Origin: a virus | Length of the DNA: 64,000 bases | Strand: one strand, 5' to 3' | IMG/VR virus record: IMGVR_UViG_3300028394_000034 | Part shown: in pieces, positions 10,146 through 25,664 of the stretch | Numbering within the stretch: the first letter of the stretch is position 1 | How the letters are laid out: each line of letters starts with the position of its first letter | Translations under genes and position numbers: made by a program | Notes under the pieces: model-generated | The model's database searches: none | What the model saw: only the letters and a program-made list of their open reading frames with translations | Told to the model about the DNA's origin: nothing

Positions 10146-10166
10146 ATTCCCTTTCGTGTTACCACT

Positions 10167-10223: not shown

Positions 10224-10305
10224 CGTAAAGTCTTTAGAGATAAGGACTTACGGCAGATTTGGCCGCCCGCCCTTGAGCTAAGTTCTTTAGCACCAAGGAC
10301 TTATG
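10224..10305. repeat. Family-A element A6
   Basis: 29+24+29 layout; ORF stop directly abuts it. Confidence 0.9.
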
Positions 10306-10566
10306 TCAACCACTAGGATAATCGGGTGGAACTGGTCGGCTAGGCTTTTCTGGCTTCTTAGTAATACCTTCCTCATAAGGCATCCACCACGGAGCATCCA
10401 TACGGTCTACAAGACCAATAGATTCATGGCAAATTAAAATATGAGGACTAACAGGATCGTCAGCATGATATTCATAATGACCAAGCCACACACCAATATG
10501 TTGCCCGTAATAGAATATCTCTTGATAATCTTTTGGTTGCTTCTCAAAAAAACTAATCCATTCCAT
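10306..10566 (-). CDS. DUF551-like small phage protein
   Basis: MEWIS..EKQP ... WWMP. Confidence 0.55.
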   Translation of the reverse strand: MEWISFFEKQPKDYQEIFYYGQHIGVWLGHYEYHADDPVSPHILICHESIGLVDRMDAPWWMPYEEGITKKPEKPSRPVPPDYPSG

Positions 10567-10690
10567 TATTTATATACCTCTATTTGCCACCGATCATACT
10601 TCAATTCAGCCGTTACACTCATGCCCAACTTAACCAGTTCAGCCACAATTTCGGCCAAACGCTCAATCTCATTAATATTTAAGTAGATCA

Positions 10691-10855
10691 TTATATCCTC
10701 AATGTCATCTTTTCCCACACTTCGATCAAATCTTTAGCAGTTATACCATGCTCCTCTGCTAAAGTCAATGCTTCATCCCTATTAGGTTTACACATCACCA
10801 TCATGGCGCTTTTCAAAACTTTCAGAATCTTAATAATCGCTTCATCCTTGCTCAT
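10691..10855 (-). CDS. Hypothetical protein
   Basis: GGAGG RBS. Confidence 0.5.
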   Translation of the reverse strand: MSKDEAIIKILKVLKSAMMVMCKPNRDEALTLAEEHGITAKDLIEVWEKMTLRI

Positions 10856-11051
10856 AGAAAGCCTCCCTCTCTGCATATACTTCTGCCACTGCAATTCTAA
10901 CTTCTATCCAATCTTCTAGAGTATCAAAACTCTCAAGGCTTTCGGCCAACTCACTATCCTCATAGCATTCCACTATGTATTGGCCCCAACTCGTATAATT
11001 ATCTTGGGCGAGTTGTTTTGCTTCAGCAATCAGTTCTTTTGTAGCAATCAT
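10842..11051 (-). CDS. Hypothetical acidic protein
   Basis: MIATKELIAEAK...; AGGAGA RBS. Confidence 0.55.
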   Translation of the reverse strand: MIATKELIAEAKQLAQDNYTSWGQYIVECYEDSELAESLESFDTLEDWIEVRIAVAEVYAEREAFYEQG

Positions 11052-11098
11052 TATCTTTCTCCTTTGTATTGTATACCGGGTGTTAATGGATCGACTTA

Positions 11099-11171
11099 TC
11101 GAAGCGACGGGACTTGAACCCGCAACACCGCCACATATAGTGTGGAACTCTACCAATTGAGTTACGCCCGA
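11099..11171 (-). pseudogene. Degenerate tRNA (5-nt anticodon loop, bulged acceptor stem)
   Basis: Intact D arm actc-aattggta-gagt and T arm gcggg-ttcaagt-cccgt; anticodon arm ccaca-CTATA-tgtgg. Confidence 0.55.
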
Positions 11172-11495
11172 CGATAGTTTTACGAATAATGTCCGGTATC
11201 ACGCATTATCCAACCCAGCCAGTAAACTTGGTTTCTATCCGACCCCTGTTTGTAAACGTGGTGAGGACGCGATCCCCCATAGATTGGTACTACTATCCAA
11301 CGTACAGCCCCGTTGGCAACCAACTATAGACATTATCCATAGCCGGTTTATCGTAGTAGGCTATCCCAACCTAGTCCAAGGCATGGACCCACGAGTTTTG
11401 TATTGTAAAGCAGATAGGGTTGAGCCATACTCGACAGCCATTTAACCGTGGCTACTTTGATATCATTCTGCCAGCGGCCGCTATCTGCTTATGTG
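11172..11495 (-). ncRNA. Candidate structured ncRNA
   Basis: About 320 nt with no long ORF directly behind a consensus promoter; 10-bp closing helix aagcagatag/ctatctgctt plus several hairpins. Confidence 0.35.
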
Positions 11496-11498
11496 CTA

Positions 11499-11527
11499 AG
11501 TATACATCTATTATCGTCACTTGTCAA
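11499..11527 (-). promoter_or_regulatory. sigma70-type early promoter
   Basis: TTGACA-17(CGATA)-TATACT. Confidence 0.85.
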
Positions 11528-11566
11528 GAGCTATCTATAGGAATTCCAAAAATTTTTTAGAGTTGA

Positions 11567-11648
11567 TGTAACCCTATGATACACAAGCACTTACGTCAAA
11601 TTCGGCCGCCCCGCCTTACCCTAAGTTCTTTAACTATAAGGGTTTATG
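11567..11648. repeat. Family-A element A7
   Basis: 29+24+29 layout. Confidence 0.85.
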
Positions 11649-11664
11649 TCAAGGGTCCCATGTT

Positions 11665-11706
11665 CTGGCTGACTATACCCACTCAGCCCAAATCCGTAGG
11701 ATTAGG
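11665..11706. repeat. Repeat family B copy 5
   Basis: ctggctgactatacccactcagcccaaatccgtaggattagg. Confidence 0.85.
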
Positions 11707-11851
11707 CGGGACAAACTTTAGAGATTCGCTCAATGAGCAAATTATTTCCATAAAGTTTCTCAGCCTGACGCAAAGCATGGTAGGTACTGTACGCTTGAAC
11801 ATACCCAACAATCTTGCTGCCCTTCATTACCATGTAGGTATCGGTACTCAT
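11702..11851 (-). CDS. Small hypothetical protein (49 aa)
   Basis: MSTDTYMVMKGSKIVGYV...; ATGA-coupled to the upstream gene; stop lies inside repeat B5. Confidence 0.45.
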   Translation of the reverse strand: MSTDTYMVMKGSKIVGYVQAYSTYHALRQAEKLYGNNLLIERISKVCPA

Positions 11852-12120
11852 TCGTCCTCCACTAGTGCAGGAAACATTCTATCCCAAGACTCACTATCAA
11901 TTCCCGTTTTGAGAATCTCACGATCATCAGCATTGAGATACGGGAAAGCAGTTTGAATCAACTCTCCATTGACCCAACGCTGGGCATCTTCAAGCTTAGT
12001 GACTATGGAAAACTCACGAAGGCCAGTAGACAACCCACTGAACTCAATCATATCCACACCGTCCACAGTCTTGATCGTTCGCGTTGTCCGATTTGTCAAA
12101 GCATATGGCGTAAACAGCAT
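11848..12120 (-). CDS. Hypothetical protein
   Basis: GGAGA RBS; W..G.LIQ.AFPYLNADDREIL.TGI. Confidence 0.65.
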   Translation of the reverse strand: MLFTPYALTNRTTRTIKTVDGVDMIEFSGLSTGLREFSIVTKLEDAQRWVNGELIQTAFPYLNADDREILKTGIDSESWDRMFPALVEDE

Positions 12121-12144
12121 CTTTTTCTCCTTTAGGTTCCTCGT

Positions 12145-12173
12145 ATTGTACACTACTAATATCGGCGTGTCAA
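12145..12173 (-). promoter_or_regulatory. sigma70-type early promoter
   Basis: TTGACA-17(CGATA)-TACAAT. Confidence 0.85.
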
Positions 12174-12201
12174 GAGAAAAACTTTGAGAAAAATTATGTG
12201 A

Positions 12202-12283
12202 CGTAAAGTGTTGATGAATAAGGACTTACATCAAACGCGGCCCGCCGGCCTCGCCCTAAGTGCTTTCGCAGCAACGACTTAGG
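12202..12283. repeat. Family-A element A8
   Basis: 29+24+29 layout. Confidence 0.9.
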
Positions 12284-12317
12284 GGTTGGTCAGCTTTTAG
12301 GCAGTACCTGCTATCTT

Positions 12318-12722
12318 TTAGAGCAGGCTAGCGACTCCACTCTTGAACAGAACCTTAGCAAGCAAAGGCTTTCGGCAGTTGCTCACACGCTCTGCATAAA
12401 AGTTACGAATCTTACCGTCAGGAGTCTGGCAAGTCACCAGATTCGCAGTACGAATGAACTCAGGATCACCGATACGATATCGGCTCTTGCGATTCAACCT
12501 CGCAATCTGGTCAGCAGTCAACGTCTGCTTGCCAACAACCTTAGCAAGAAAACGCTCATGCGTTCCATGCAACGGCTGCTGATAAACAAAGTTGTAAACC
12601 TGACCATCCTTAGCATTCGCCAAGCTGGCCTTGCTTCCACCGTAAACGGAATAGAAGACAAACCCTACAACAGCACAAGTAACCGCAAACAGAATACCAG
12701 TCAACACAACAAAATCACTCAT
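12318..12722 (-). CDS. Membrane-anchored hypothetical protein
   Basis: TM segment FVVLTGILFAVTCAVVGFVFY. Confidence 0.65.
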   Translation of the reverse strand: MSDFVVLTGILFAVTCAVVGFVFYSVYGGSKASLANAKDGQVYNFVYQQPLHGTHERFLAKVVGKQTLTADQIARLNRKSRYRIGDPEFIRTANLVTCQTPDGKIRNFYAERVSNCRKPLLAKVLFKSGVASLL

Positions 12723-12767
12723 AAGAAACCCTTTCAAATTGAAAACCAATCTAACATCCATGCCACA

Positions 12768-12796
12768 AGTCTACACTATATATCGACCGTTGTCAA
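12768..12796 (-). promoter_or_regulatory. sigma70-type early promoter
   Basis: TTGACA-17(CGATA)-TAGACT. Confidence 0.8.
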
Positions 12797-13056
12797 GCAG
12801 AAACTTTAGAAAAATTTTCTTCCCAGTATTCTGCCATTTCAGCCATGTTGATACCGCTATCGTTCCAAGCAACTCCATCCGAAGTTTCATATCGGATTCT
12901 GGTCTTTTCAAACATTTCACGAAGAACAATTCTGAAATGACTGAAACATTCGCATTGTTTAGCGATACCGTACAACATTTCATCATTACTGATCCACAAG
13001 CAAACATTCCACGTTTGATAGTTTGCGTAACCGTTATAGCTTCCGTCCGGACTCAT
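12793..13056 (-). CDS. Conserved small phage protein
   Basis: YNGYANYQTWNVCLWISNDE motif common in phage accessory regions. Confidence 0.65.
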   Translation of the reverse strand: MSPDGSYNGYANYQTWNVCLWISNDEMLYGIAKQCECFSHFRIVLREMFEKTRIRYETSDGVAWNDSGINMAEMAEYWEENFSKVSA

Positions 13057-13084
13057 GCTTCACTCTCTCTTTCTTGTATACGTC

Positions 13085-13113
13085 ATTCTACTATACAATA
13101 TCGTCTAATGCAA
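13085..13113 (-). promoter_or_regulatory. sigma70-type early promoter
   Basis: TTGCAT-17(CGATA)-TAGAAT. Confidence 0.75.
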
Positions 13114-13127
13114 GGGCTAAACTTGAA

Positions 13128-13145
13128 TCTTACAAGATTGTAAGG
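13128..13145. promoter_or_regulatory. Motif C palindrome (first of 7 copies)
   Basis: tcttac-aagatt-gtaagg; other copies at 14163, 14858, 15737, 16426, 16750, 17794. Confidence 0.65.
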
Positions 13146-13150
13146 ATCGA

Positions 13151-13232
13151 CGTAAAGCGTTGATACATAAGTACTTACGACGAAGCCGGCCCGCCGCGTC
13201 GGCCCTAAGTGCTTGAACACAAAGGGTTTACG
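13151..13232. repeat. Family-A element A9
   Basis: 29+24+29 layout; left arm is an exact IHF consensus. Confidence 0.9.
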
Positions 13233-13244
13233 ACGAGTGATAGT

Positions 13245-13475
13245 TTACTCAAAATCAACAAAGATAATTTGAGCATAACCGCGAGGCTTGACGGTATATC
13301 CGTCTCCGTAATCGCACGTATCAGCCTTGACCGCTGTCATACCAGCCAGAGCCTTAGCCTTACGAACAACGCTACGCTGGCTAGCATTCTTCTTGGGGAT
13401 AAACTCGTAACGATTCACCCAGCCATAGTTAGCTTCGCCACCAAACGTATCCGTATGAGTCACAACACACTTCAT
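13245..13475 (-). CDS. Hypothetical protein
   Basis: TDTFGGEANY.WV.R motif. Confidence 0.65.
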   Translation of the reverse strand: MKCVVTHTDTFGGEANYGWVNRYEFIPKKNASQRSVVRKAKALAGMTAVKADTCDYGDGYTVKPRGYAQIIFVDFE

Positions 13476-13565
13476 TTTGCCAATTCCTTTGCTTTCATGG
13501 TTTCAAAATACAACTGTTCCAACAACTTAACTCTACTTACTGCACGACCAGCTTCACGATTCATG

Positions 13566-13594
13566 AGTATAACAGCTTTTTCGTGTGCTGTCAA
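13566..13594 (-). promoter_or_regulatory. sigma70-type early promoter
   Basis: TTGACA-17-TATACT. Confidence 0.75.
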
Positions 13595-14123
13595 TACCTT
13601 CTTTTTCGTTTTCATTTCAGTCTCCGTAAGTATCAGAATCGTTCATGTAAATTAATCGACCAACTCGGTTAGAACAATTATATTCCTTATTCCAACCAGC
13701 TTCAATTTCTGGAGACTTTTCAGGCAAGCCTACAGACTTACGATATTCAATCCATTTTTCTTCATTAGTCATTTCTGCTCTTCATCTTTCTTTAATGGGC
13801 CACGATAGCCTTTAAATCTTTTCAACTCACCATAGTAATTACGACCAGCAGAACCGTGTTGAGTCTTTTTCTTTTTAGGCTTTTCGTACATAACCTTCAA
13901 CAAAAATTCATAGTGTAAATCCATTTTATACTCCTAACCAAACATCTCATATTCTTCATCAGTCAATGCTACCTCATCTGGACGATAACAATTGTTGCCA
14001 TACAGATCACGATTCTTAGGACGCTTTTCCCATTCATCCATGAATCGGTTATACTCTTCGATACGCTTTTCTTCTTCACTTTTCATCATTCACTTTTTCT
14101 TTCTCTAATACCTTATATCGACA

Positions 14124-14151
14124 AGTATAGCAGACAATCTTTAGCTGTCAA
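14124..14151 (-). promoter_or_regulatory. sigma70-type promoter, class II
   Basis: TTGACA-16-TATACT-tgtCGATA. Confidence 0.75.
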
Positions 14152-14184
14152 ACAGAAAGTTTTCTTACAATATCGTAAGGTTGG

Positions 14185-14266
14185 CGTAAAGTGTTGGCAT
14201 ATAACGACTTATGTCAAATTCGGCCCGCCGCGCCGGCCCTAAGTGCTTATGCACAAAGGGTTTACG
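14185..14266. repeat. Family-A element A10
   Basis: 29+24+29 layout. Confidence 0.9.
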
Positions 14267-14274
14267 GCGAATTT

Positions 14275-14538
14275 TCAATCGTCGTATGGGCCATCATCAT
14301 TATAATCAACAAATCCGACAGCTTCATCAGCGTGGAAATCTTCCTGGTAATCTAAATCTTCCCCGTAATAGCCGTAGGACTCATCCATTCCATGTCCTGC
14401 GGAAGCCAACGCAGATTCAGCATCACCATCCATACTATCATCAAACGAATCATCCTCAACCTCATAATCGGAAAGGTCAGTGTCCATGCACTCACCGTAG
14501 AAATCTTCAACATCGTCGTATTCGTAGCTCATGGTCAA
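14275..14538 (-). CDS. Extremely acidic small protein
   Basis: 87 aa, D/E/Y-rich, no Lys or Arg. Confidence 0.6.
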   Translation of the reverse strand: MTMSYEYDDVEDFYGECMDTDLSDYEVEDDSFDDSMDGDAESALASAGHGMDESYGYYGEDLDYQEDFHADEAVGFVDYNDDGPYDD

Positions 14539-14598
14539 TCCTTCACAATGGTAGTAATGTAGAGCAGGCCAACATAGGACGCAACGAACGCAATCGCA

Positions 14599-14772
14599 CT
14601 AAGCATCAATATACTCCTCTGGAATGAAATCGTCAACAGCACCCACCACTTCTGCCCAATCCCAAAAATTCACTTCCACGCTGGGATCGTCAATCGGCTC
14701 GACCATCGGTTCCACAATCCCCTTTTCGGCCATGTCGTTCAGAATGTCATTGATCTCGTCGAAGTTCAGCAT
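14599..14772 (-). CDS. Acidic small protein
   Basis: MLNFDEINDIL...; behind promoter 14809. Confidence 0.55.
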   Translation of the reverse strand: MLNFDEINDILNDMAEKGIVEPMVEPIDDPSVEVNFWDWAEVVGAVDDFIPEEYIDA

Positions 14773-14808
14773 GATTCTGTTTCCTATGGGTTTCCTTGTG
14801 ATGCTTCG

Positions 14809-14837
14809 ATTATACACTTATCATCGACATATTGCAA
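14809..14837 (-). promoter_or_regulatory. sigma70-type early promoter
   Basis: TTGCAA-17-TATAAT. Confidence 0.8.
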
Positions 14838-14890
14838 GCCCCCCATAAAATTTCTTTCCTTATATTTTTGTAAGGTTCGCCGGCTATCGT

Positions 14891-14907
14891 TTGGCACGGC
14901 ATTTGCT
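14891..14907 (+). promoter_or_regulatory. sigma54-type -24/-12 site
   Basis: TTGGCACGGCATTTGCT (GG-N10-GC). Confidence 0.65.
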
Positions 14908-14920
14908 GTTGGGGGGTTTT

Positions 14921-15002
14921 CGTAAAGTGTTGCAGGATAAGCACTTATGGCTCGCTGGGCCGGCCGAACTCGACGTAAGTCCTTATGAGTTAAGGAGATA
15001 CG
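14921..15002. repeat. Family-A element A11
   Basis: 29+24+29 layout; box 2 overlapped by a small ORF end. Confidence 0.85.
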
Positions 15003-15376
15003 TCAAGCCACACCCAAGAACAAAAGCTGTACCTAATAGAATATAATCACTAATTTTCATCATTTTCCTCCATATACATGATATGTGACATACTAGCAGA
15101 GAGTAAGATACCGACAATATAACCAAAAGCAACGCTAATAAAATCAAATTGATACATCCCTGTATCTCCAGTGTTATTGGGTCAATCCCCATATCCTACC
15201 CAGAACTCATCACCATTTTCATCTTTCATAAGAGTAAAGCCCCTAGACTTCATCCTCTCATATTCACCAAATCTCTGCCAGACTTCACAAATCGTTTCCA
15301 TACACTTGAGCATCATCCCCATAACCCACACAAACGGATATTGAATCATTCTCATAACCCTCTCCTATTCTGCACC

Positions 15377-15405
15377 ATTCTACACTATTGTTATCGACCC
15401 GTCAA
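15377..15405 (-). promoter_or_regulatory. sigma70-type early promoter
   Basis: TTGACG-17(CGATA)-TAGAAT. Confidence 0.8.
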
Positions 15406-15417
15406 GGGCCCCGACTT

Positions 15418-15459
15418 TAGGCTGACTATACCCACCCTACCCAAATCCGTAGGATTAGC
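15418..15459. repeat. Repeat family B copy 6
   Basis: taggctgactatacccaccctacccaaatccgtaggattagc. Confidence 0.85.
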
Positions 15460-15477
15460 TCGGACAGTTATCTGTCC

Positions 15478-15657
15478 TTACTTGACAGACTCCATGTGTT
15501 CAAACGTGATGCACTTGTCCAGATAGATCGACCGATACCCCTGTTCGGCCTTGACCGTCAGGAGAACACGATCTCCAAACCCACGCACATTGACAACTTC
15601 ACCATTGACGATTTCACCGTTGTCATAATCCGCAAAAACAAAGTCACCGATTTTCAT
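15478..15657 (-). CDS. Small beta-rich protein (59 aa), paralog of 18692-18880
   Basis: MKIGDFVFADYDNGEIVNGEVV...GYRSIYLDKC (translated by hand; below the ORF-track cutoff). Confidence 0.7.
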   Translation of the reverse strand: MKIGDFVFADYDNGEIVNGEVVNVRGFGDRVLLTVKAEQGYRSIYLDKCITFEHMESVK

Positions 15658-15697
15658 TGTTCTACCCTTTTCCTTTTCTCTTACTTGTTATATCGAC

Positions 15698-15725
15698 ATT
15701 ATACCAAAGGATATTTAGCTTGCAA
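15698..15725 (-). promoter_or_regulatory. sigma70-type promoter, class II
   Basis: TTGCAA-16-TATAAT-gtCGATA. Confidence 0.75.
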
Positions 15726-15768
15726 GCGAAAAGTTTCCTTACAATTCCGTAAGGTTCGCGGAGAAAGT

Positions 15769-15785
15769 TTGGCACACCATTTGCT
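15769..15785 (+). promoter_or_regulatory. sigma54-type -24/-12 site
   Basis: TTGGCACACCATTTGCT. Confidence 0.65.
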
Positions 15786-15797
15786 ATAGAGACTCGA

Positions 15798-15879
15798 CGT
15801 AAAGTGTTGGCACATAAGCACTTAGAGCAAATTCGGCCCGCAAAATTCGTCGTAAGTGCTTTAGCAGCAAGGGTTTACG
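15798..15879. repeat. Family-A element A12
   Basis: 29+24+29 layout. Confidence 0.9.
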
Positions 15880-16020
15880 ACAAGTTTTTGAGTTTGCGCC
15901 TGTACACCCGTTTACCATCCACCCAAATGGGGAGGTATAGCTTAGGGTACAACTGAACATATGTATTCTTTACTAGACGCTCAGTCTCTAGTGTAACGTC
16001 GTACACTAGTATACAGTTGT

Positions 16021-16347
16021 TCATTCTTCCCCCTTGAAGCTGAACGGGCTGATTTCGAGATGAGCAACAACACCGTATTGCTTGGTCAGTTCCTCGACAC
16101 GTTCACGGCTACCCGGCTTACCAACCGGAACGATCATGGTATCCTCGCTACCGATCATCCGCGGGTCAACCTTTTCCATCTTGCTCTTGCCCATATTCTT
16201 CAATGCTGTCCGATTGAACTTCAGAACCTTTTCCACTTGGATCATCTCACCGTCGATGTCTTTCACTTCGGTAGGAATCGCCATACCAAGAAAGCACAGA
16301 CGGGCTTGACGCTTGGCAGCTTGAATGATCGGGAACTTGGTAGCCAT
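16021..16347 (-). CDS. Hypothetical protein
   Basis: 108-aa ORF with GAGGA RBS behind promoter 16387. Confidence 0.65.
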   Translation of the reverse strand: MATKFPIIQAAKRQARLCFLGMAIPTEVKDIDGEMIQVEKVLKFNRTALKNMGKSKMEKVDPRMIGSEDTMIVPVGKPGSRERVEELTKQYGVVAHLEISPFSFKGEE

Positions 16348-16386
16348 GTTTCTTATCCTCTAGGGTTATCGTTCTCTTGTGAGTGT

Positions 16387-16414
16387 ATTATACCAAACTG
16401 ATTTTCAATGTCCA
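16387..16414 (-). promoter_or_regulatory. sigma70-type promoter
   Basis: TGGACA-16-TATAAT. Confidence 0.6.
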
Positions 16415-16454
16415 GCAAAATCTTTCCTTACATTTTCGTAAGGTTTCTCGTCTC

Positions 16455-16679
16455 TCACACAGGAGTCGGATTCGACCGGTAGTATTTTGCCCACAGATCA
16501 TCGATCACGAACTGGACAACGCGATCATGTGAACCACGGCAGACATAGTAGCCCATGTGGATATCGAACAGAGCAAACGATCCATCCTCTTTCGGATGAA
16601 ACGTAAACCCACACTTGTAGGCGTAGGCGTTGATCTTACCCTTGACAGTCGAACTTTTCGGAGGCTTTCTCATTTTCAT
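16455..16679 (-). CDS. Hypothetical protein
   Basis: AAGGA RBS; behind promoter 16711. Confidence 0.6.
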   Translation of the reverse strand: MKMRKPPKSSTVKGKINAYAYKCGFTFHPKEDGSFALFDIHMGYYVCRGSHDRVVQFVIDDLWAKYYRSNPTPV

Positions 16680-16710
16680 TCCTTCTTTCTTCTCTTGTTC
16701 TTATATCGAC

Positions 16711-16738
16711 ATTATACCATACCCTCTTTAGGTTGCAA
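16711..16738 (-). promoter_or_regulatory. sigma70-type promoter, class II
   Basis: TTGCAA-16-TATAAT-gtCGATA. Confidence 0.75.
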
Positions 16739-16780
16739 GCAAAATCTTTCCTTACAAAGTCGTAAGGTTTGCCGGCCGTA

Positions 16781-16840
16781 TTGGCACAGCATTTGCTATA
16801 TGCAATTATCATGCCAAACTTTTTTGGCACAGCATTTGCG
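16781..16840. promoter_or_regulatory. Triplet of sigma54-type sites (+,-,+)
   Basis: TTGGCACAGCATTTGC / minus-strand TTGGCATGATAATTGCA / TTGGCACAGCATTTGC. Confidence 0.7.
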
Positions 16841-16851
16841 TTACCGCTTGA

Positions 16852-16933
16852 CGTAAAGTGTTGGTATATAAGCACTTATGGCAAATTCGGCCCCGAAAAT
16901 TCGTCGTAAGTCCTTTGGTATCAAGGGTTTACG
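16852..16933. repeat. Family-A element A13
   Basis: 29+24+29 layout; right arm TATCAAGGGTTTA is an exact IHF consensus. Confidence 0.9.
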
Positions 16934-16957
16934 TCGAATCTTTTGTACACTACTATA

Positions 16958-17275
16958 CTACTGTATAGTCATCCCCTCGATATAGGGGAATACCTTACCA
17001 TTTGTATGTACGTTCCACTCTCCCTTTACTTGTCGAACATATCCCGGAATATACTGATTTATCCTATCCTTAGTCGTTGGGGTATACCATCCCCCTGTTC
17101 GTAGGGTATAGGTATTATCCTCATGGATTGTGACCACATATGTACTGTGGAGCATTACCCCTACGCTACCATCTGGCATAATCTCAGCATATGTATTGTT
17201 ACCAATCTTTCGGGATTGCCGGCCCGTCTTACCATGTACCATCTTTACTGCTTCAGTGTGTGTCATTTTGCTCAC
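16958..17275 (-). CDS. Conserved small phage protein
   Basis: KIGNNT...LH.T.VV...L.TGGWYT.TTKDRIN. Confidence 0.65.
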   Translation of the reverse strand: MSKMTHTEAVKMVHGKTGRQSRKIGNNTYAEIMPDGSVGVMLHSTYVVTIHEDNTYTLRTGGWYTPTTKDRINQYIPGYVRQVKGEWNVHTNGKVFPYIEGMTIQ

Positions 17276-17533
17276 CAGCTTTCGCTGATCATCCCTAGTA
17301 ATTGTTGAAGAAACTGTAGAATCTCTTTTATGTTATATGTGGCATAATCCACATAACCATCGGGCAGATACCTAGACATAATTTTCTCAGTCGTTGTCGT
17401 GAAGGATGGAATGGATAGCGTTACCTACCTCGTGGGCAGTGTAAGACATGAAACCAGCAAAACTAATCAGGGCAAACAGCTGAACGTATTCGATAGGCGT
17501 AATCATTTAGGAGTCTCTCTTTCTTGTTTGTCT

Positions 17534-17563
17534 ATTATACAGTATCGGCTATTCTCTTGTCAA
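17534..17563 (-). promoter_or_regulatory. sigma70-type promoter
   Basis: TTGACA-18(CGATA)-TATAAT. Confidence 0.75.
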
Positions 17564-17567
17564 CCAC

Positions 17568-17726
17568 TTAGAAATTCCAAATGCTTTTTGAATTATAGGG
17601 GAGCAGATCGTCAATCGGGAAGCCCGTAGCTTCTGCAACAATCTTTCGGGCTACCATCCAATCGGCGGCGGATGCTTGACCGATAAACTTGTGATCACCA
17701 TAGCTGAAGAAGTAAAACGTTTTCAT
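17568..17726 (-). CDS. Small hypothetical protein (52 aa)
   Basis: MKTFYFFSYGDHKFIG...; AAGGA RBS behind promoter 17756 (hand translation). Confidence 0.5.
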   Translation of the reverse strand: MKTFYFFSYGDHKFIGQASAADWMVARKIVAEATGFPIDDLLPYNSKSIWNF

Positions 17727-17755
17727 TTTCTTTTTTCCTTTTCTCTTGTTTCTCT

Positions 17756-17785
17756 ATTATACTCTATCGGTTATTGTCTTGTCAA
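17756..17785 (-). promoter_or_regulatory. sigma70-type promoter
   Basis: TTGACA-18(CGATA)-TATAAT. Confidence 0.75.
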
Positions 17786-17812
17786 CTCTTGAACCTTGCA
17801 ATGTCGTAAGGT

Positions 17813-18055
17813 TCAGGCAAAATCCTCTTCACCAAAGAAATCATCGAGCCATTGGTCATCAGTCTCGATATGATCCTCAGTATCCCCCATAATGGGGTCC
17901 CAACCTTCCCCATCGTCAAGGCCCGGAATGTAGTCGGCTTCCATGCTATCGTCTGCAATGATCGTGCAATGCTCACCACACTGGGAGCAAATCTCATGAT
18001 CGACATTGCTTTCAGCATTGCAGCAATCGGAAACGTATAAGGTATTCTTTTCCAT
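17813..18055 (-). CDS. Small Zn-ribbon plus acidic-tail protein
   Basis: SDCCNA...CSQCGEHC then D/E-rich C-terminus. Confidence 0.65.
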   Translation of the reverse strand: MEKNTLYVSDCCNAESNVDHEICSQCGEHCTIIADDSMEADYIPGLDDGEGWDPIMGDTEDHIETDDQWLDDFFGEEDFA

Positions 18056-18101
18056 TTTCTTATCCTCTTTTCTTTCTTGTTCTCTTTTCTCTTATATCGA
18101 C

Positions 18102-18129
18102 ATTATACAGTAGATTCTGAAACATTCAA
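18102..18129 (-). promoter_or_regulatory. sigma70-type promoter, class II
   Basis: TTGAAT-16-TATAAT-gtCGATA. Confidence 0.7.
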
Positions 18130-18192
18130 GCAAAATCCAAAAAGATTTATGTCAAGAGATTTTGACAAAACTTTTCATCATTTTCTATACGA

Positions 18193-18252
18193 TTGGCATA
18201 CCATTTGCTCTATGCAATTATCGTGCCAAACTTTTTTGGCATGAAATTTGCT
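18193..18252. promoter_or_regulatory. Triplet of sigma54-type sites (+,-,+)
   Basis: TTGGCATACCATTTGC / minus-strand TTGGCACGATAATTGCA / TTGGCATGAAATTTGC. Confidence 0.7.
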
Positions 18253-18289
18253 GTGTGTTAAGATAGGTAAGATTGGGCCAAAAACGTGT

Positions 18290-18371
18290 CGTAAGTCATT
18301 GCAGCATAAGCACTTACGACGAGCCGGCCGCCGCGAATTTGACGTAAGTCCTTTATCCATAAGGGTTTGCA
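18290..18371. repeat. Family-A element A14
   Basis: 29+24+29 layout. Confidence 0.9.
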
Positions 18372-18666
18372 TCAAGCCGGCCAGTATACAAGCGTATACC
18401 CTACAGAATAGAGTATAATTCCCCTACGATCACAAAGAACCTATACGCTAGAACAGTTAGCAGTATACAAGCGATCAGGTCTACAATTATCATGATACCA
18501 ATTCCTCTTTTGCTTGAAGTGATTCCACAAGAGCCCAACATTCATTGAACGTAATATGTCGGGCGATTACCACCCCACCATACCATACCTCATACCGATC
18601 CCCTGTCCGATTGGAAGTATTCCAGTAGATCATTTTCTTTTGCATGGCTTGTATCCTCTTTTCCGT

Positions 18667-18695
18667 ATTGTATACGTTGTCCGTTTAGGTGTCAA
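18667..18695 (-). promoter_or_regulatory. sigma70-type promoter
   Basis: TTGACA-17-TACAAT. Confidence 0.75.
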
Positions 18696-18880
18696 GCGGT
18701 AGCCAAATAATTGCAAGAAACACACTTGTCGAGATACATTGAACGATATCCAACATTCTCGATTTTCAACGTGAACAGGAGTCGATACCCTTCCATATAC
18801 TTGACGCTCACGATTTCCCCAACAAACTTTTCACCCGTAGCATATTCGACCGAGACGTTGTATCCGATTTCCATTTTCAT
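18692..18880 (-). CDS. Small beta-rich protein, paralog of 15478-15657
   Basis: MEIGYNVSVEYATGEKFVGEIV...GYRSMYLDKC. Confidence 0.7.
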   Translation of the reverse strand: MKMEIGYNVSVEYATGEKFVGEIVSVKYMEGYRLLFTLKIENVGYRSMYLDKCVSCNYLATA

Positions 18881-18914
18881 TTCCTTTTCTTTATCGTTCG
18901 TTTCTTGTTTCTGT

Positions 18915-18943
18915 ATTATACTGATCGGCTTTTTTGTTGTCAA
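18915..18943 (-). promoter_or_regulatory. sigma70-type promoter
   Basis: TTGACA-17-TATAAT, perfect consensus. Confidence 0.9.
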
Positions 18944-18960
18944 TACCTTAGAAAATATTT

Positions 18961-19194
18961 TTACCGATAGATTCCATCGTTGATAACGTATCCGTCATTA
19001 TCCACTTCGATGAACTCTCCTTCATCACCCATCGGAAAGAAATATTCGATCATGTTTCGATTATTCTTCGCTTCGTCAAGCAGTTCTCCACCGATTGCAT
19101 ATTCGGTACCAACCAGAGTATCCAGTTCAATCGAATTGTTGTAGAGCACTTCGTTCAGTTCTTCCCGATTCATGATGATTTTCGTATTCTTCAT
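18961..19194 (-). CDS. Acidic hypothetical protein
   Basis: MKNTKIIMNREEL...; first gene after promoter 19235. Confidence 0.6.
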   Translation of the reverse strand: MKNTKIIMNREELNEVLYNNSIELDTLVGTEYAIGGELLDEAKNNRNMIEYFFPMGDEGEFIEVDNDGYVINDGIYR

Positions 19195-19234
19195 TTTCTT
19201 ATCCTTTTCTTTCCTTGTTTTCTCTTGTGCTTTC

Positions 19235-19262
19235 ATTATACAGTATTTATCGACCACTTCAA
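19235..19262 (-). promoter_or_regulatory. sigma70-type promoter
   Basis: TTGAAG-16(CGATA)-TATAAT. Confidence 0.7.
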
Positions 19263-19317
19263 TAGGAAAAATAAAAAAATCCAAAATATATTTTCATGCC
19301 AAATAACTTTTTTCTTT

Positions 19318-19334
19318 TTGGCACACCACTTGCG
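19318..19334 (+). promoter_or_regulatory. sigma54-type -24/-12 site
   Basis: TTGGCACACCACTTGCG. Confidence 0.6.
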
Positions 19335-19345
19335 TTAAAACTTGA

Positions 19346-19427
19346 CGTAAACCGTTGGCACATAAGCACTTACGACGAATTTTCGGGAGAGAGATCATCA
19401 TAAGTTGTTTATTTTCATATACTTACA
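19346..19427. repeat. Family-A element A15 (most divergent linker)
   Basis: cgtaaac-N15-acttacg, 24 nt, cataagt-N15-acttaca. Confidence 0.8.
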
Positions 19428-19674
19428 GCTTAGGGGGTTTTTTTGTTTTAAATAGGCTAGGTAAATTGGGGAAGAAAAACCTGGGGTGGTCCAAACATAG
19501 TAAGCGACCTCCAGTATAATTGGCCAGTTTAATGACCACTTATTCTTTATTATATACTGATCCCATTAATCATATATCAAAAGCCCCCAATCTTTCTAGA
19601 ATATCATCGATCAACAGGGGGTATTTTACCAGCTAATTGAAAAACTAGAACGACCCATCTCTGATCCATAAAAT

Positions 19675-19712
19675 AAAAAAAAGAGGCAAGCATTTCTGCC
19701 TGCCCCTTTTAA
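19675..19712 (-). terminator. Rho-independent terminator
   Basis: ggggcaggca-GAAA-tgcttgcctc followed by a T run. Confidence 0.85.
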
Positions 19713-20462: not shown

Positions 20463-21155
20463 ATGACCAACAAAAAACCGACAAAATCGACCAAACCTAA
20501 AATATCAGATAAAAATAATAGTGATTTACCAAATGGCGTTTCTCAAGAAGAATTTCTCATAGTATTGGATAACATAAGCAAAAGACTTGGCCACAAATTC
20601 CGCTTCGGTTATCACGACTTTGATGATATGAAACAACAAGCTGCCATATTCGCTATGGAAGGCTTGGAAAAATACGATAATAGTCGCCCATTAGAGAATT
20701 TCTTATGGACCCACGTAAGAAATCGCCTCTTTAATTTTAAACGTAATAATTATCAAAGGCCCGACAAACCCTGTTTTACCTGTCCATTATTTGATAAAGC
20801 CTATAAATGCTCTAACAATCAGTGTTCAAAATACACAGATAAGAGTGAGTGTGAATTATATTCATCTTGGGCAACACGAAATGATGCCAAGAAGAATATT
20901 ATGCAACCTTCCCATATCGAACATGACATCCACCACTGCAAAAACCAAAATTTCACCACATTAATTCAAAATCAAGAGATTATTAAATTTCTAGATCAGA
21001 ATATCCAGTCAGAACATAGAGAATGTTATCTCAAATTGAAGCATGGACACAAAATTCCCAAGCAACAGCTTAATAAATTACAAAAACATATCTCAGAACT
21101 AATGGAGAAAAAAGAGTGGCAACAAATAACGCCCCCCGAAAACGAGGACAATTAA
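20463..21155 (+). CDS. Phage RNA polymerase sigma factor (sigma70-like), probably the late sigma
   Basis: Region 2: DDMKQQAAIFAMEGLEKYD...FLWTHVRNRLFNFKR; Cys-rich insert; C-terminal helix region. Confidence 0.7.
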   Translation: MTNKKPTKSTKPKISDKNNSDLPNGVSQEEFLIVLDNISKRLGHKFRFGYHDFDDMKQQAAIFAMEGLEKYDNSRPLENFLWTHVRNRLFNFKRNNYQRPDKPCFTCPLFDKAYKCSNNQCSKYTDKSECELYSSWATRNDAKKNIMQPSHIEHDIHHCKNQNFTTLIQNQEIIKFLDQNIQSEHRECYLKLKHGHKIPKQQLNKLQKHISELMEKKEWQQITPPENEDN

Positions 21156-21946
21156 GCTTAGAAGAAGAAAAGTTTATAAGAGACCATTTTGACAAGTTAT
21201 CTATTGAACAAATCTCAGAAGTTTTAAATCGAAATCCCCCTCCAATCAAAAGATATATAGAGGAGAGCCGATTAACTGTACCCACCGAAGAAAAGAACGA
21301 CAATGCTTTCTTAAAACAAAAACTCCACACCAAAACATTCTGGACCGAAGTTCAAAGACAATTTGATGAAGAGTCTGGGGAGTTAGCCTATTTTGAAGAT
21401 ACTTGGGTTGGCCTAATTAAACAGTTTAGAGAGGATGTTCTACCCGCCGAAGAACTTCAAATTAAACAATTCATCACTATAGATATTCTTATCAATAGAA
21501 GTATGAAAGAACGTAAACGTCATATTAGCGAAACCGACAAGCTACAACGTTTAGTTGATAAAGAATATGATAAGTCTGAAGACCAAAGAGATGCCGCCAG
21601 ACTCATGAATTTAGAAACTCAATTAAGTTTTGCCCGTAATAGTATAGCCAATTATACAAATGAATATACTAAACTGCTTAACGAACAACAAAAAATAAGC
21701 AAAGACTTAAAGGCCACACGAGAGCAAAGAATTAAAAGAATCGAAGATGGCAAAAGCTCATGGACCGGATTAATAAGAATGTTAGAGGACGAAGTTATTA
21801 GAGAACGTGAAGGCCGTGAGATGGAAATATTAGCATTAGCCACCGACAAAGCCAAGAAAACTCTTCAAGGATATCACTCATACGAAGATCGAACATTAGA
21901 CCGCCCCTTTTTAACCCCCGACAGTGTAGAGGACAATAATGAATAA
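21116..21946 (+). CDS. Putative terminase small subunit (N-terminal HTH plus coiled coil)
   Basis: HTH-like N-terminus, long helical body, upstream of TerL; position-based. Confidence 0.4.
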   Translation: MATNNAPRKRGQLSLEEEKFIRDHFDKLSIEQISEVLNRNPPPIKRYIEESRLTVPTEEKNDNAFLKQKLHTKTFWTEVQRQFDEESGELAYFEDTWVGLIKQFREDVLPAEELQIKQFITIDILINRSMKERKRHISETDKLQRLVDKEYDKSEDQRDAARLMNLETQLSFARNSIANYTNEYTKLLNEQQKISKDLKATREQRIKRIEDGKSSWTGLIRMLEDEVIREREGREMEILALATDKAKKTLQGYHSYEDRTLDRPFLTPDSVEDNNE

Positions 21947-22946
21947 AGTAGCTATGGTAACAGGAGTAACCGGCCAAGACGGATCTTATTTAAGTGAACT
22001 ATTACTTAATCAAAATTATACAGTGATAGGACTTCATCGTAGAAGTAGTGTTAATAACTTTGAAAGAATTAACCACCTATTAAATAATCCCCGTTTTAAG
22101 CTAGAAGAATTTGATCTAACTGACCCTAGCGATTGTTCATATGTTATAGAGTCCTATAGCCCCAACGAGCTTTACAATCTTGCTGCACAAAGCCATGTGG
22201 CCACCAGTTTTAAACAACCCACAACCACCATGGAGATTAATACAATAGGAGTTATCAATCTTCTAGAGACCATAAGAGCCCGATCTCCAAAGACTCGTTT
22301 TTATCAGGCTAGTACTAGTGAGATGTTTGGGGCAAATTATACTTCGGGAGATTTTGGTGGAAAATATCAAAATGAGGATACTCCATTTCTTCCTCAAAGT
22401 CCTTATGCTGTTGGTAAGTTGTCTAGTCATAGGATGGTGCAGATTTATAGAGAGGCATATAATATGTATGCTTGTTCTGGTATTCTATTTAATCATGAAA
22501 GTCCCCGCCGTGGTGAAAACTTTGTTACTCGAAAAATCACGAGATATCTAGGCCGTTTAATTAATGGTGTAATTTCTAAAGAGAATAAACTCAAGCTTGG
22601 TAATTTAGATGCGACAAGAGACTGGGGCCATGCTAAAGATTATGTTGAGGCTATGTATTTAATGATGACTCAACAAAAAGCAGACGATTACGTTATTGCA
22701 ACAGGGTCAGCATATACTGTACGAAACTTTTTAGAAAAAGCTTTTGGTCTTGTTAATCTAGATTATAAAGACTATGTAGAAATTGATCCTGAACTGTATA
22801 GGCCCGCTGAAGTTACTTATCTTAAGGGAGATTATTCCAAAGCTAAAAAACAATTAGGATGGACTCCAACATCTTCTTTGGATGATCTCGTTAAGGATAT
22901 GGTAAATAGTGACATTGAGGCATATTCAAATGCTAAGAAACTTTAA
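21939..22946 (+). CDS. gmd: GDP-mannose 4,6-dehydratase
   Basis: GVTGQDGSYL, YNLAAQSHV, YQASTSEMFG, SPYAVGK, FNHESPRRGENFVTRKI, GNLDATRDWG. Confidence 0.95.
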   Translation: MNKVAMVTGVTGQDGSYLSELLLNQNYTVIGLHRRSSVNNFERINHLLNNPRFKLEEFDLTDPSDCSYVIESYSPNELYNLAAQSHVATSFKQPTTTMEINTIGVINLLETIRARSPKTRFYQASTSEMFGANYTSGDFGGKYQNEDTPFLPQSPYAVGKLSSHRMVQIYREAYNMYACSGILFNHESPRRGENFVTRKITRYLGRLINGVISKENKLKLGNLDATRDWGHAKDYVEAMYLMMTQQKADDYVIATGSAYTVRNFLEKAFGLVNLDYKDYVEIDPELYRPAEVTYLKGDYSKAKKQLGWTPTSSLDDLVKDMVNSDIEAYSNAKKL

Positions 22947-23202
22947 TGATCCAACATATAAAAAATGGCGCAAAGCTGTATATTCTAGAGATGGTCACAA
23001 GTGTCAGTGGCCAGGATGTTCAATTAGGAAAAAGTTAAATGCTCATCATATAAAAACTTGGGCTGAATTTCCAGCATTAAGATACTGTACTCAAAATGGT
23101 ATAACATTATGTTATAATCATCATAAAATGATTAAAGGAATGGAAAGCATCTATGAGGGCATCTTTTTAAAGATTGCAAATGAAAATGACAAATCACTCT
23201 GA
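22909..23202 (+). CDS. HNH endonuclease (packaging-associated type)
   Basis: RDGHKCQWPGC...AHHIK...NGITLCYNHH. Confidence 0.85.
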   Translation: MTLRHIQMLRNFNDPTYKKWRKAVYSRDGHKCQWPGCSIRKKLNAHHIKTWAEFPALRYCTQNGITLCYNHHKMIKGMESIYEGIFLKIANENDKSL

Positions 23203-23665
23203 CTTTACCATCATAATAGATACCCGCGAACAACAACCGTGGACTTTTGATAATTATGCTACAGCCCACAAGAAGCTGGATACTGGGGACTATAGTATTG
23301 AGGGACTAGAAACAATATTAGGCATCGAAAGAAAAAAGAGCGTTAGCGAGTTTGCAAACAATATCATAGAAAGCAGATTTAAAGATGTTGTATTCAGAAT
23401 GAGTCAGCTTAAATACTCATTTTTATTACTTGAATTTGACTTAGAAGATATTCTTATTTATCCAGTAGGATCAACAGTTCCTAAGAAGATGTGGGACAAA
23501 ATTAAAATATCTCCAGCCTTTATTCTTAAACATATTCTAGAGTTGCAGTTAAATCATAACATCAAAGTTTTATTTTGCGGAGATTCTGATAGCGCAAGTA
23601 AAATGGCAGAACATATTCTTAAAAAGGTTCATTACATTGAAAGATTTACAAAAAAAGACATTTGA
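23174..23665 (+). CDS. ERCC4-domain nuclease
   Basis: IIIDTREQQP, KLDTGDYS, GIERKK. Confidence 0.85.
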   Translation: MQMKMTNHSDFTIIIDTREQQPWTFDNYATAHKKLDTGDYSIEGLETILGIERKKSVSEFANNIIESRFKDVVFRMSQLKYSFLLLEFDLEDILIYPVGSTVPKKMWDKIKISPAFILKHILELQLNHNIKVLFCGDSDSASKMAEHILKKVHYIERFTKKDI

Positions 23666-25664
23666 AGATGCATGGTTAGGATTAGGAGATCTGAGCCTAA
23701 TAGACATATCTAAAAACCTTATGATCAATAGATCAGAGGAAGACATAGAGAATCCGGATCTTCATTTGATGAGACTATTACGCAATCCTAAATACTTTGC
23801 TATCTCATGCAAATTACTCTTTAACATAGAACTCCACCCTATACAAGTAGCAGTGTTGCAGGAATTCTGGAATCGACCGTTCCCCATGTTTATAGCCAGC
23901 CGCGGATTCGGTAAGTCTTTTATTCTGGCTCTTTACTCCGTTTTGAAATGTGTTTTCGTCCCTGGCACCAAAATCGTGATTGTTGGTGCTGCCTTCAGAC
24001 AGAGTAAAATTATCTTTGAGTATATGGAGACCATCTGGAGGAATAGTCCAATACTAAGAAGTATTTTTAATGGAAATGATGATGGTCCAAGAAGAGACGT
24101 AGATCGTTGCACTATTAGATTAGGAGATAGTTGGGCATGTGCTATTCCTATGGGTGATGGAAGTAAGATCAGAGGATTGAGAGCACATATTATTATTGCT
24201 GACGAATTTGCATCTATCAGTCCAGATATTTATGAAACAGTAGTCGCCGGGTTCGCGGCTGTTTCTGCTAGTCCAATACAGAATGTAAAAGAACAAGCAA
24301 AGAAAAAAGCAATGACAGAAGCTGGATTATGGAATGAAGAATTAGAAGCTCTAGATACTAAAATGGGAAATCAAGCAATAATATCAGGAACAGCAGACTA
24401 CGCTTTCAAACACTTTGCATCATACTGGAAAAGATACAAGGGAATAATAGAGAGCAAGGGAGAGAAAAGAGTCTTAGAAGATTTATTCAAAGGAGATGTT
24501 CCAGCCAACTTTAATTGGAGAGACTACTCAATCATTAGAATGCCTTATGAATTAATTCCAAAAGGCTTCATGGATGATAAACAGGTAGCTAGAGCCAAGG
24601 CAACAATCCATACAGGCATTTATAATATGGAGTATGCCGCCTGCTTCGTTACAGATAGTGAAGGCTTTTTCAGAAGAAGTTTAATAGAGAACTGTGTTAC
24701 GTCAGACTCCAAACCTATCGTTATCAACGAGAAAAGAATAATATTCGATGTCTCAGTGTCAGGTAATAGCTCTGCACAATATATTTATGGAATTGACCCA
24801 GCCTCAGAGCAAGATAATTTTAGTATTACCGTACTAGAAGTTCATCCAGACCACTCTCGTATCGTCTATTGCTGGACAACTAATAGAAATAACTTTAAAG
24901 AAAGACAAAAAACTGGTCTAGTAAAAGATCATGACTTTTATGGATTCTGTGCTAGGAAAATTAGAAACCTAATGAAAACCTTCCCATGCGCTAGAATAGG
25001 AATGGACGCACAAGGAGGAGGAGTAGCAATAGAAGAAGCTTTGCATGATCCTTCTAAATTGGAAGATGGAGAAAATCTAATTTGGCCAGTAATAGACCCT
25101 AATAAAAAATCTGAAACTGATGACCAAGCTGGCCTTCATTTGATTGAGCTTGTGCAGTTTGCCAAGGCAGATTGGACTAGTCAAGCAAATCATGGATTAA
25201 GAAAAGATTTAGAAGATAAAGTATTATTATTCCCTAGGTTTGATAGTTTAACTCTAGGATTAGCCTTAGATAAAGAAGGTAAAGATATATTAGAAACAGA
25301 TTTAAATCCAATATACGATAGTGTTAGTGAATGTATTTTAGAAATAGAAGAACTAAAGAACGAATTGACCACTATTGTTATGACACAAACAAGTAATGGT
25401 CCTAATGCTAGAGATAGATGGGATACTCCTGAAATCAAATTACAGAATGGCAAAAAGGGAAGACTCAGAAAAGACCGATATAGTTCATTAATAATAGCAA
25501 ACATGCTAGCAAGACAAATGAATAGGACTTTAAAAAATATCTCCTATGATATAGTCGGTGGAAATGCCAGGAATATGGTTGGACAGACAGGAGATATGTA
25601 TAAGGGACCAGAATGGTTTACTTCTTCTGCTAACGATGAGATTTATAAGGGCATTTATAGATAA
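23637..25664 (+). CDS. terL: Terminase large subunit
   Basis: Walker A ASRGFGKS, Walker B IIADEF, RNase H-like YGIDPA...DNF and DRYS. Confidence 0.9.
   Translation: MKDLQKKTFEDAWLGLGDLSLIDISKNLMINRSEEDIENPDLHLMRLLRNPKYFAISCKLLFNIELHPIQVAVLQEFWNRPFPMFIASRGFGKSFILALYSVLKCVFVPGTKIVIVGAAFRQSKIIFEYMETIWRNSPILRSIFNGNDDGPRRDVDRCTIRLGDSWACAIPMGDGSKIRGLRAHIIIADEFASISPDIYETVVAGFAAVSASPIQNVKEQAKKKAMTEAGLWNEELEALDTKMGNQAIISGTADYAFKHFASYWKRYKGIIESKGEKRVLEDLFKGDVPANFNWRDYSIIRMPYELIPKGFMDDKQVARAKATIHTGIYNMEYAACFVTDSEGFFRRSLIENCVTSDSKPIVINEKRIIFDVSVSGNSSAQYIYGIDPASEQDNFSITVLEVHPDHSRIVYCWTTNRNNFKERQKTGLVKDHDFYGFCARKIRNLMKTFPCARIGMDAQGGGVAIEEALHDPSKLEDGENLIWPVIDPNKKSETDDQAGLHLIELVQFAKADWTSQANHGLRKDLEDKVLLFPRFDSLTLGLALDKEGKDILETDLNPIYDSVSECILEIEELKNELTTIVMTQTSNGPNARDRWDTPEIKLQNGKKGRLRKDRYSSLIIANMLARQMNRTLKNISYDIVGGNARNMVGQTGDMYKGPEWFTSSANDEIYKGIYR

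Follow-up and report, generated by a model that had tools for sequence, protein, structure and literature searches.

Why does a phage keep nine near-consensus boxes of the bacterial sigma-54 promoter type between its small early genes, with most of them pointing against these genes? The boxes are found in a 64,000-nucleotide stretch (the window) of the IMG/VR virus record IMGVR_UViG_3300028394_000034, which corresponds to bases 13155-77154, read on the reverse strand, of a 199,884-bp record with direct terminal repeats. The record represents a very large, uncultured freshwater phage of siphovirus type with a lytic-type genome. Its minus strand is packed with small genes from the window start to ~19.2 kb, each with its own sigma-70-type promoter and a purine-rich ribosome-binding site, and the structural genes run rightward from ~20.3 kb. 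We suggest that the nine boxes may be sites of the host sigma-54 holoenzyme that act as conditional promoters, a reading to which we give a probability of about 0.5. Part of the early programme of the phage is probably linked through them to host sigma-54 transcription, a route hardly described for phages.

Nine exact matches to the pattern TGGCAY-N5-TTGC, equivalent to GG-N10-GC, are found in the window, and all of them lie within 14892-19333. Shuffled sequences give a mean of 0.18 matches and a maximum of 2 for the same pattern and window. The initial annotation had listed these nine loci, and all are recovered with starts 1 nt further to the right, as counted from TGGCA. Its GG-N10-GC spacing is right, but the pattern it gave, TTGGCAY-N4-TTGC, has no match as written; the intended form has an N5 spacer. 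A weight matrix of 22 positions was built from relatives, with the phage's own sites left out and a threshold of 12 bits. Exactly nine sites of the whole genome exceed this threshold, scoring 19.7-32.8 of a possible 34.3 bits, and the one extra regular-expression match in the 199,884 bp stays below 12 bits. With the same matrix, shuffled genomes exceed 12 bits at 0-3 positions and 16 bits at almost none.

The comparison set comprises 80 terminase-anchored relatives (1.19 Mb), with a bias toward contigs that carry a terminase. For TGGCA-Nk-TTGC with k from 0 to 15, 146 matches are observed at k = 6 and 3-20 at each other k. A matrix scan with enrichment in this and related genomes had been proposed as a check, and such analysis gives only the nine sites in this genome and k = 6 as the sole spacing peak in the relatives. 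The two halves are heterotypic: TGGCA-N6-TTGCW occurs 136 times, TGGCA-N6-TGGCA once and the reversed order 4 times. A further candidate motif, TTGCW-N7-TTGCW (63 counts), was rejected, its copies being orthologous coding sequence. The logo of 130 distinct sites reads TT-TGGCA-Y-R-R-n-A-T-TTGC-T, and the farther flanks carry no information. It corresponds to the classical consensus, with C, G, r after TGGCA and W after TTGC. Positions that were not selected in the search also agree with the sigma-54 consensus, namely Y (-21), R (-20, -19), T (-11) and the T before TGGCA.

A phage-derived matrix was further run over 114 kb of Escherichia coli K-12 around known sigma-54 operons, with the operon list taken from PMC3844500. 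Six of the top eight matches are known sigma-54 promoters, which lie upstream of rtcB (rank 1, 54 bp), hypA (rank 3, 46 bp), glnA (glnAp2; rank 4, 99 bp), norV (rank 5, 63 bp), pspA (rank 6, 67 bp) and hycA (rank 8, 52 bp). The matches at ranks 14 and 15 are upstream of zraS and zraP. The operons of all these genes (rtcB, hypA, glnA, norV, pspA, hycA, zraS, zraP) are sigma-54-dependent (PMC3844500, PMC4591121). The boxes of the window score 20.9-30.2 of 31.6 bits, compared with at most 18.0 bits at any position of the E. coli test regions. By four independent lines, namely spacing, heterotypic halves, unselected positions and the recovery of E. coli promoters, the identity of the boxes as sigma-54 -24/-12 elements, which the initial annotation had claimed, is well supported.

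Seven boxes are on the plus strand and two on the minus strand, while the small early genes are on the minus strand, so that the seven are antisense to them, as had been noted. The boxes occupy five loci. At all five, as first described, a minus-strand sigma-70-type -35/-10 pair lies on one side and a ~97-bp A element, made of two hairpins 53 bp apart, lies on the other. Three loci additionally carry a palindrome of the type CCTTAC-N6-GTAAGG between the box and the sigma-70 promoter, and the boxes are 25-35 bp away from the -35 of the neighbouring sigma-70 promoters. The boxes of the window are followed downstream by nothing but hairpin elements or a further promoter. In the two triplets the TTGC and GCAA cores are separated by 5 nt, not by the 4 nt previously given for the -12 elements; the half-site reported near 19295 is present as TGCCAA.

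The predicted +1 is placed 12 nt past the C of the -12 GC, which is 19 bp past the motif centre (PMC4591121). With this rule, boxes 14892, 15770, 16825 and 19319, four of the five plus boxes directly before an A element, are predicted to start transcription at base 1, 2 or 3 of that element. For box 18237 the predicted +1 falls ~25 nt ahead of the A element. The remaining two plus boxes (16782 and 18194) face a minus box. The outermost box, 19319, points away from every gene, toward a minus-strand terminator at 19679-19710, and any product would be non-coding.

Some relatives have the same box in front of genes. In L054, L059, L062, L067 and L078 a minus box is followed after 11 nt by the leader ATATAAGAAAG, a ribosome-binding site and ATG; in the sigma-70 cassettes the same leader comes after TATAAT-GTCGAT. 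These box-led genes have no visible -35/-10 pair, and the box is their sole visible promoter. One of them is the orthologue of window gene 17813-18055, which has a sigma-70 promoter here. Three GTAGCA-AAA-TGCTAC palindromes (with variants T[TA]GCA-W3-TGC[TA]A) and an A-tract lie 40-170 bp upstream of these boxes (L067:1400-1800, L059:3940-4150, L062:4290-4490, L054:2510-2715, L078:4260-4460 and 5550-5750). This enhancer-like block stands between the gene-driving minus box and a divergent plus box that points straight into an A element. In its layout this is a textbook enhancer-dependent promoter. The enhancer-like palindromes are found in only ~8 of the 80 relatives, so that boxes without them are the norm.

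Of the 146 boxes in the unbiased set of relatives, 81 lack a second box within 60 bp. Paired boxes are tandem (++) at 26-27 bp in 11 cases, convergent (+-) at 19-21 bp in 11 and back-to-back (-+) at 23-32 bp in 8. Since 81 of 146 boxes stand alone, a palindrome as the general bound unit is rejected, and with it the alternative raised at the outset, that TTGGCA..TGCCAA is bound as a palindrome by another factor, finds no support. The triplet of the window recurs in five unrelated flanks, where only the -24 and -12 elements and the immediate junction are invariant. Many other minus boxes in relatives lie 6-8 nt ahead of a CCTTAC palindrome and a sigma-70 promoter, forming tandem promoters. A strong inverted repeat within 45 nt after the box is observed for about two thirds of the boxes, compared with one third of control positions, and its sequence varies by lineage (CGTAAGT...ACTTACG here, CTGCCATTTTGGCAG elsewhere). 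Judged by these sequence comparisons, the sigma-54 box belongs to the family as a whole and is kept in a very large group of phages while its flanks change.

The A element is present in 15 copies at window 2797-19429. Folding of 65 distinct copies gives a more stable plus strand in 44 of them (Wilcoxon p=0.045). In the 13-pair core of hairpin 2 across the 65 copies, the ratio of G.T pairs, which are wobble pairs on the plus strand, to A.C pairs is 99:20; the two central pairs are either G.T or Watson-Crick but never A.C, giving tandem G.T/T.G on the plus strand. Hairpin 1 has no clear bias (25:16). An initial scan for hairpins and a free dynamic-programming tally of G.T and A.C were too noisy and were set aside. 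RNAalifold gives no consensus structure for the A copies, and Rfam contains no family match for the element. The strand bias is suggestive of RNA from the plus strand, the strand of the plus boxes, though the early genes are on the minus strand.

We propose that the boxes form an optional module set into the boundaries of the first five cassettes of early genes, where the order is A double hairpin, box or boxes, small palindrome and sigma-70 promoter. Host sigma-54 holoenzyme would sit on the boxes as a closed complex and fire only with an active host enhancer-binding ATPase, because the phage encodes no activator. From the plus boxes before A elements, short hairpin RNAs of ~100 nt, antisense to the early transcripts, would be made. 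The two minus boxes would each give one early gene an additional start that depends on sigma-54 and lies upstream of its sigma-70 promoter. As an outcome, part of the early expression would be coupled to a physiological signal of the host.

Several findings weigh against this promoter model. The GTAGCA-AAA-TGCTAC enhancer palindrome is absent from the whole 200-kb genome, and no other enhancer-like repeat is found near the boxes. Neither this phage nor any of five large relatives yielded an activator gene (PF00158). Overlapping convergent or back-to-back boxes would not all be occupiable at once, given the known footprint of the closed complex. In one sub-lineage the predicted +1 lies inside the hairpin instead of before it. 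Ten of the 15 A elements have no sigma-54 box, so the A element is independent of the boxes, and the G.T bias is not independent evidence because the A copies are related by descent. On the host side, sigma-54 is absent from Cyanobacteria and Actinobacteria, both common in lakes (PMC3162934); if the host were a cyanobacterium, the sigma-54 reading would fail. Binning of relatives into metagenome-assembled genomes points to unrelated bins (Rickettsiales, Flavobacteriales, Silvanigrellaceae, SAR202 and others), from which no host can be inferred.

Sigma-54 genes (PF04552, PF04963) are likewise not found in this phage or in the five large relatives. The sole weak PF00158 (Sigma54_activat) signal is a 305-aa RuvB-like AAA+ protein (G000:C1:112623-113540, plus strand, outside the window), with orthologues in relatives L062 and L094. 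It was considered as a sigma-54 activator and rejected, being RuvB-like with only a weak PF00158 match.

The absence of an enhancer from the genome and the lack of any activator gene found also favour the strongest rival, which we regard as rather unlikely: sigma-54 holoenzyme would bind without firing and serve as an insulator or roadblock at the cassette boundaries, as an occlusion upstream of the sigma-70 promoters, or as a sink for the small sigma-54 pool of the host that blunts sigma-54-dependent stress responses. Closed complexes are stable without an activator (PMC4987338), and the boxes are nearer to the family consensus than any E. coli test position, known sigma-54 promoters included. 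Where convergent or divergent boxes overlap, the layout seems ill suited to initiation, and the distance of 25-35 bp between the boxes and the sigma-70 -35 would also suit this role. For the sink, the sigma-54 dependence of Psp and Rtc is of relevance (PMC3844500). However, in relatives the same box is part of a full promoter layout and the sole visible promoter of a gene, a roadblock was tested and not seen at intragenic E. coli sites (PMC4591121), and a sink has no need of a register with the A element. Among the three functions originally put forward, the promoter is best supported, by the leader and enhancer-like palindromes in relatives and by the +1 of four plus boxes at the A-element start, and decoy or roadblock remains the lesser reading. 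As to the enhancer-less boxes in register with double hairpins, we tentatively propose either short sigma-54-driven antisense hairpin RNAs or a poised polymerase as a switchable insulator or sink; in both cases the output of the early genes would hinge on an ATPase signal from the host, with none supplied by the phage. For this large group of freshwater phages, that would be a use of sigma-54 holoenzyme not described for viruses.

It is rather improbable that the likeness to sigma-54 sites is a coincidence and the box an operator for an unrelated phage or host protein, for example a tandem winged-helix dimer on TTGGCA and TTTGCT one helical turn apart. The halves do resemble a 7-4-7 direct repeat, the boxes stand among other operator-like palindromes, TGGCA is also found in the CTGCCATTTTGGCAG hairpins of one sub-lineage and in A-element loops, and the host may be without sigma-54. 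Such an operator would not explain the near-absence of swapped or homotypic halves, the sigma-54 preferences at unselected positions or the recovery of real E. coli sigma-54 promoters by the matrix. Nor would it explain why the box in relatives occupies the place of a promoter, at a fixed distance to a shared leader and with enhancer-like sites upstream.

Regions 4 and 2 of a sigma-70-family protein span ~23 bp in the holoenzyme. That the box is a middle promoter for the phage's own sigma-like protein is highly improbable: the first large gene of the rightward module (window 20463-21155, plus strand), which adjoins the array, matches Sigma70_r2 weakly (19.8-22.1 bits, below the Pfam cut-off) and its product may be a phage sigma-like factor, but the motif equals the sigma-54 consensus, its elements are ~11 bp apart centre to centre and not ~23 bp, and a phage sigma should serve many genes, yet the box is nowhere else in 200 kb. 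A search for a T7-type RNA polymerase gave no match in any control genome and is therefore uninformative.

A comparison of the boxes with bacterial sigma-54 promoters (glnAp2/NtrC, pspA/PspF, hycA-hypA/FhlA) shows the same -24 GG, -12 GC, spacing and secondary preferences, and one matrix finds both. Some relatives further share with them the three upstream palindromes, the A-tract and divergent boxes with one common enhancer. Unlike bacterial promoters, the phage boxes are mostly antisense, some form overlapping triplets and no enhancer is seen here. Small RNA genes are also known to depend on sigma-54, such as Qrr under LuxO in vibrios and GlmY, which has overlapping sigma-70 and sigma-54 promoters. 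The LuxO site is TTGCA-N3-TGCAA, and the enhancer half-site of the relatives, T(T/A)GCA-W3-TGC(T/A)A, resembles it. As in Qrr and GlmY, the box is directly followed by a short hairpin-rich non-coding unit, and either promoter type can lead to the same start point; there is no sequence relation and no Rfam match, however, and the RNA product here is only predicted.

In E. coli and Salmonella, intragenic and antisense sigma-54 sites are mostly silent without an activator, and antisense RNA, interference and small RNAs have been proposed for them (PMC4591121, PMC3844500). These chromosomal sites likewise are holoenzyme sites not in front of a gene, but they are weaker, scattered and mostly within genes, whereas the phage boxes are intergenic, near-consensus, clustered and in register with a hairpin element. 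A phage precedent is Pseudomonas phage YuA, where a mapped promoter, P015, is associated with a sigma-54-like promoter region, according to the statement in PMC10914365 that cites Ceyssens 2008. That statement concerns one such promoter in a temperate-like siphophage; here nine boxes are found in both orientations at repeated cassette boundaries, and in hundreds of uncultured relatives. The repeated boundary modules, with a consensus -35/-10 on the gene strand and a stem-loop between small early genes, are similar to the PeSL cassettes of T4-type phages, in which repeated units of small early genes with a strong sigma-70-type promoter and a stem-loop mark cassette shuffling (PMC2839356). The early-cassette frame is the same, but PeSLs have no sigma-54 box, and a double hairpin, 53-bp phasing and a second small palindrome are present here.

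Our literature searches found no paper on sigma-54 box arrays in phage early regions, and phage transcription is described almost wholly via sigma-70, phage sigma factors and phage polymerases. That phages widespread in lakes keep near-consensus sigma-54 boxes would imply either a link to a host signalling ATPase (nitrogen, stress or motility state) or the capture of scarce sigma-54 polymerase. For the study of closed-complex interaction, the boxes are also of use as naturally occurring, very strong sigma-54 sites whose overlapping layouts are unusual. Since several major lake phyla have no sigma-54, the box may help to narrow the host range. The features of the array are collected in Table 1.

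Table 1. Boxes and accompanying elements of the early array, in window positions
Feature	Position	Strand	Remark
Sigma-54 box TGGCACGGCATTTGC	14892..14906	+	32.8 bits; predicted +1 14918 = A element start
Sigma-54 box TGGCACACCATTTGC	15770..15784	+	predicted +1 15796 = G of GACGTAAAG
Triplet 1, first box	16782..16796	+	convergent with 16802(-)
Triplet 1, middle box	16802..16816	-	sense to early genes; upstream of CCTTAC palindrome and sigma-70 promoter of gene 16455-16679(-)
Triplet 1, third box	16825..16839	+	predicted +1 16851 = second base of A element
Triplet 2, first box	18194..18208	+	pattern match
Triplet 2, middle box	18214..18228	-	sense direction; upstream of sigma-70 promoter of gene 17813-18055(-)
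Triplet 2, third box	18237..18251	+	predicted +1 18263, ~25 nt before A element
Outermost box	19319..19333	+	points out of early array; predicted +1 19345 on A hairpin
Isolated -24-like half-site TGCCAA	19297..19302	-	without -12 partner
A element (two ~33-nt hairpins, 53 bp apart)	14915..15011	.	directly downstream of box 14892
A element	15790..15890	.	downstream of box 15770
A element	16844..16942	.	downstream of triplet 1
A element	18281..18380	.	downstream of triplet 2
A element, second half degenerate	19338..19429	.	downstream of box 19319
Small palindrome CCTTAT-N6-GTAAGG (family D8)	14858..14875	.	between sigma-70 -35 and box 14892
Small palindrome CCTTAC-N6-GTAAGG	15737..15754	.	
Small palindrome CCTTAC-N6-GTAAGG	16750..16767	.	
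Sigma-70-type promoter TTGCAA-17-TATAAT	14809..14837	-	cassette to left
Sigma-70-type promoter TTGCAA-16-TATAAT, TG-extended	15698..15725	-	gene 15478-15657(-)
Sigma-70-type promoter	16711..16738	-	gene 16455-16679(-)
Sigma-70-type promoter TTGAAT-16-TATAAT	18102..18129	-	gene 17813-18055(-)
First sigma-70-type promoter of early array	19235..19262	-	gene ~18961-19194(-)

Some smaller elements are observed in the same array. The palindrome TTTAGCTTGCAAGCGAAA is found at 15714-15731 and 16727-16744, centred on the -35 hexamer TTGCAA of two early promoters; TTGCAA being the centre of a palindrome, the same hexamer would therefore be a -35 in both directions. Another palindrome, TGTCAA-N6-TTGACA, lies at 18142-18175 between triplet 2 and the sigma-70 promoter, and its block 'TTTTGTCAAAATCTCTTGACATAAA' is also found after convergent boxes in relatives L046, L064, L077 and L102. 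Past the outermost plus box a G5T7 run (GGGGG-TTTTTTT) is located at ~19434-19445, which is also present in relatives L078, L122, L058 and L103. In some relatives the G/T run belongs to a terminator-like CCCC-N4-GGGG hairpin with a T run; in this phage no matching stem is seen.

The phage has no cultured near relative, as a megablast search with the region finds nothing among 50,697 phage records and the best cultured matches in a terminase tblastn search (Bacillus, Clostridium and Microcystis phages) have only 22-25% identity. The nearest cultured terminase match with good coverage is Microcystis phage MaeS. In IMG/VR at least 596 contigs carry terminases that are ~80% identical, and the contig names of relatives point to lakes, for example Mendota and Lanier. 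An early protein at window 16958-17275 (-) weakly matches Kyano_Gp96 (PF23790), a family that takes its name from cyanophages, with 24 bits, which is below the cut-off. Seven tRNA genes are located at window 4915-8444 (-), for Lys-ttt, Glu-ttc, Ser-act, Asn-gtt, Gln-ttg, Thr-tgt and Arg-tct; five of the seven read A-ending codons, and this hints at a host with a G+C content above that of the phage.

In the rightward module, the large terminase gene is located at window 23637-25664 and a 3606-aa tape-measure protein is encoded at 50133-60953; a portal and collagen-like fibres are also encoded. Inspection by eye upstream of the structural genes revealed no late-promoter motif. Between the sigma-like gene and the terminase, a GDP-mannose 4,6-dehydratase gene is found at window 21939-22946 (+; PF16363, E 3.7e-116), and the nearest Atlas clusters of its product are mostly viral and give no host clue. 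A protein with an ERCC4-type nuclease domain (window 23174-23665, +; PF02732, E 1.2e-8) is encoded by a gene that overlaps the start of the large terminase gene. One base, at window position 4192, differs between the window and the genome sequences.

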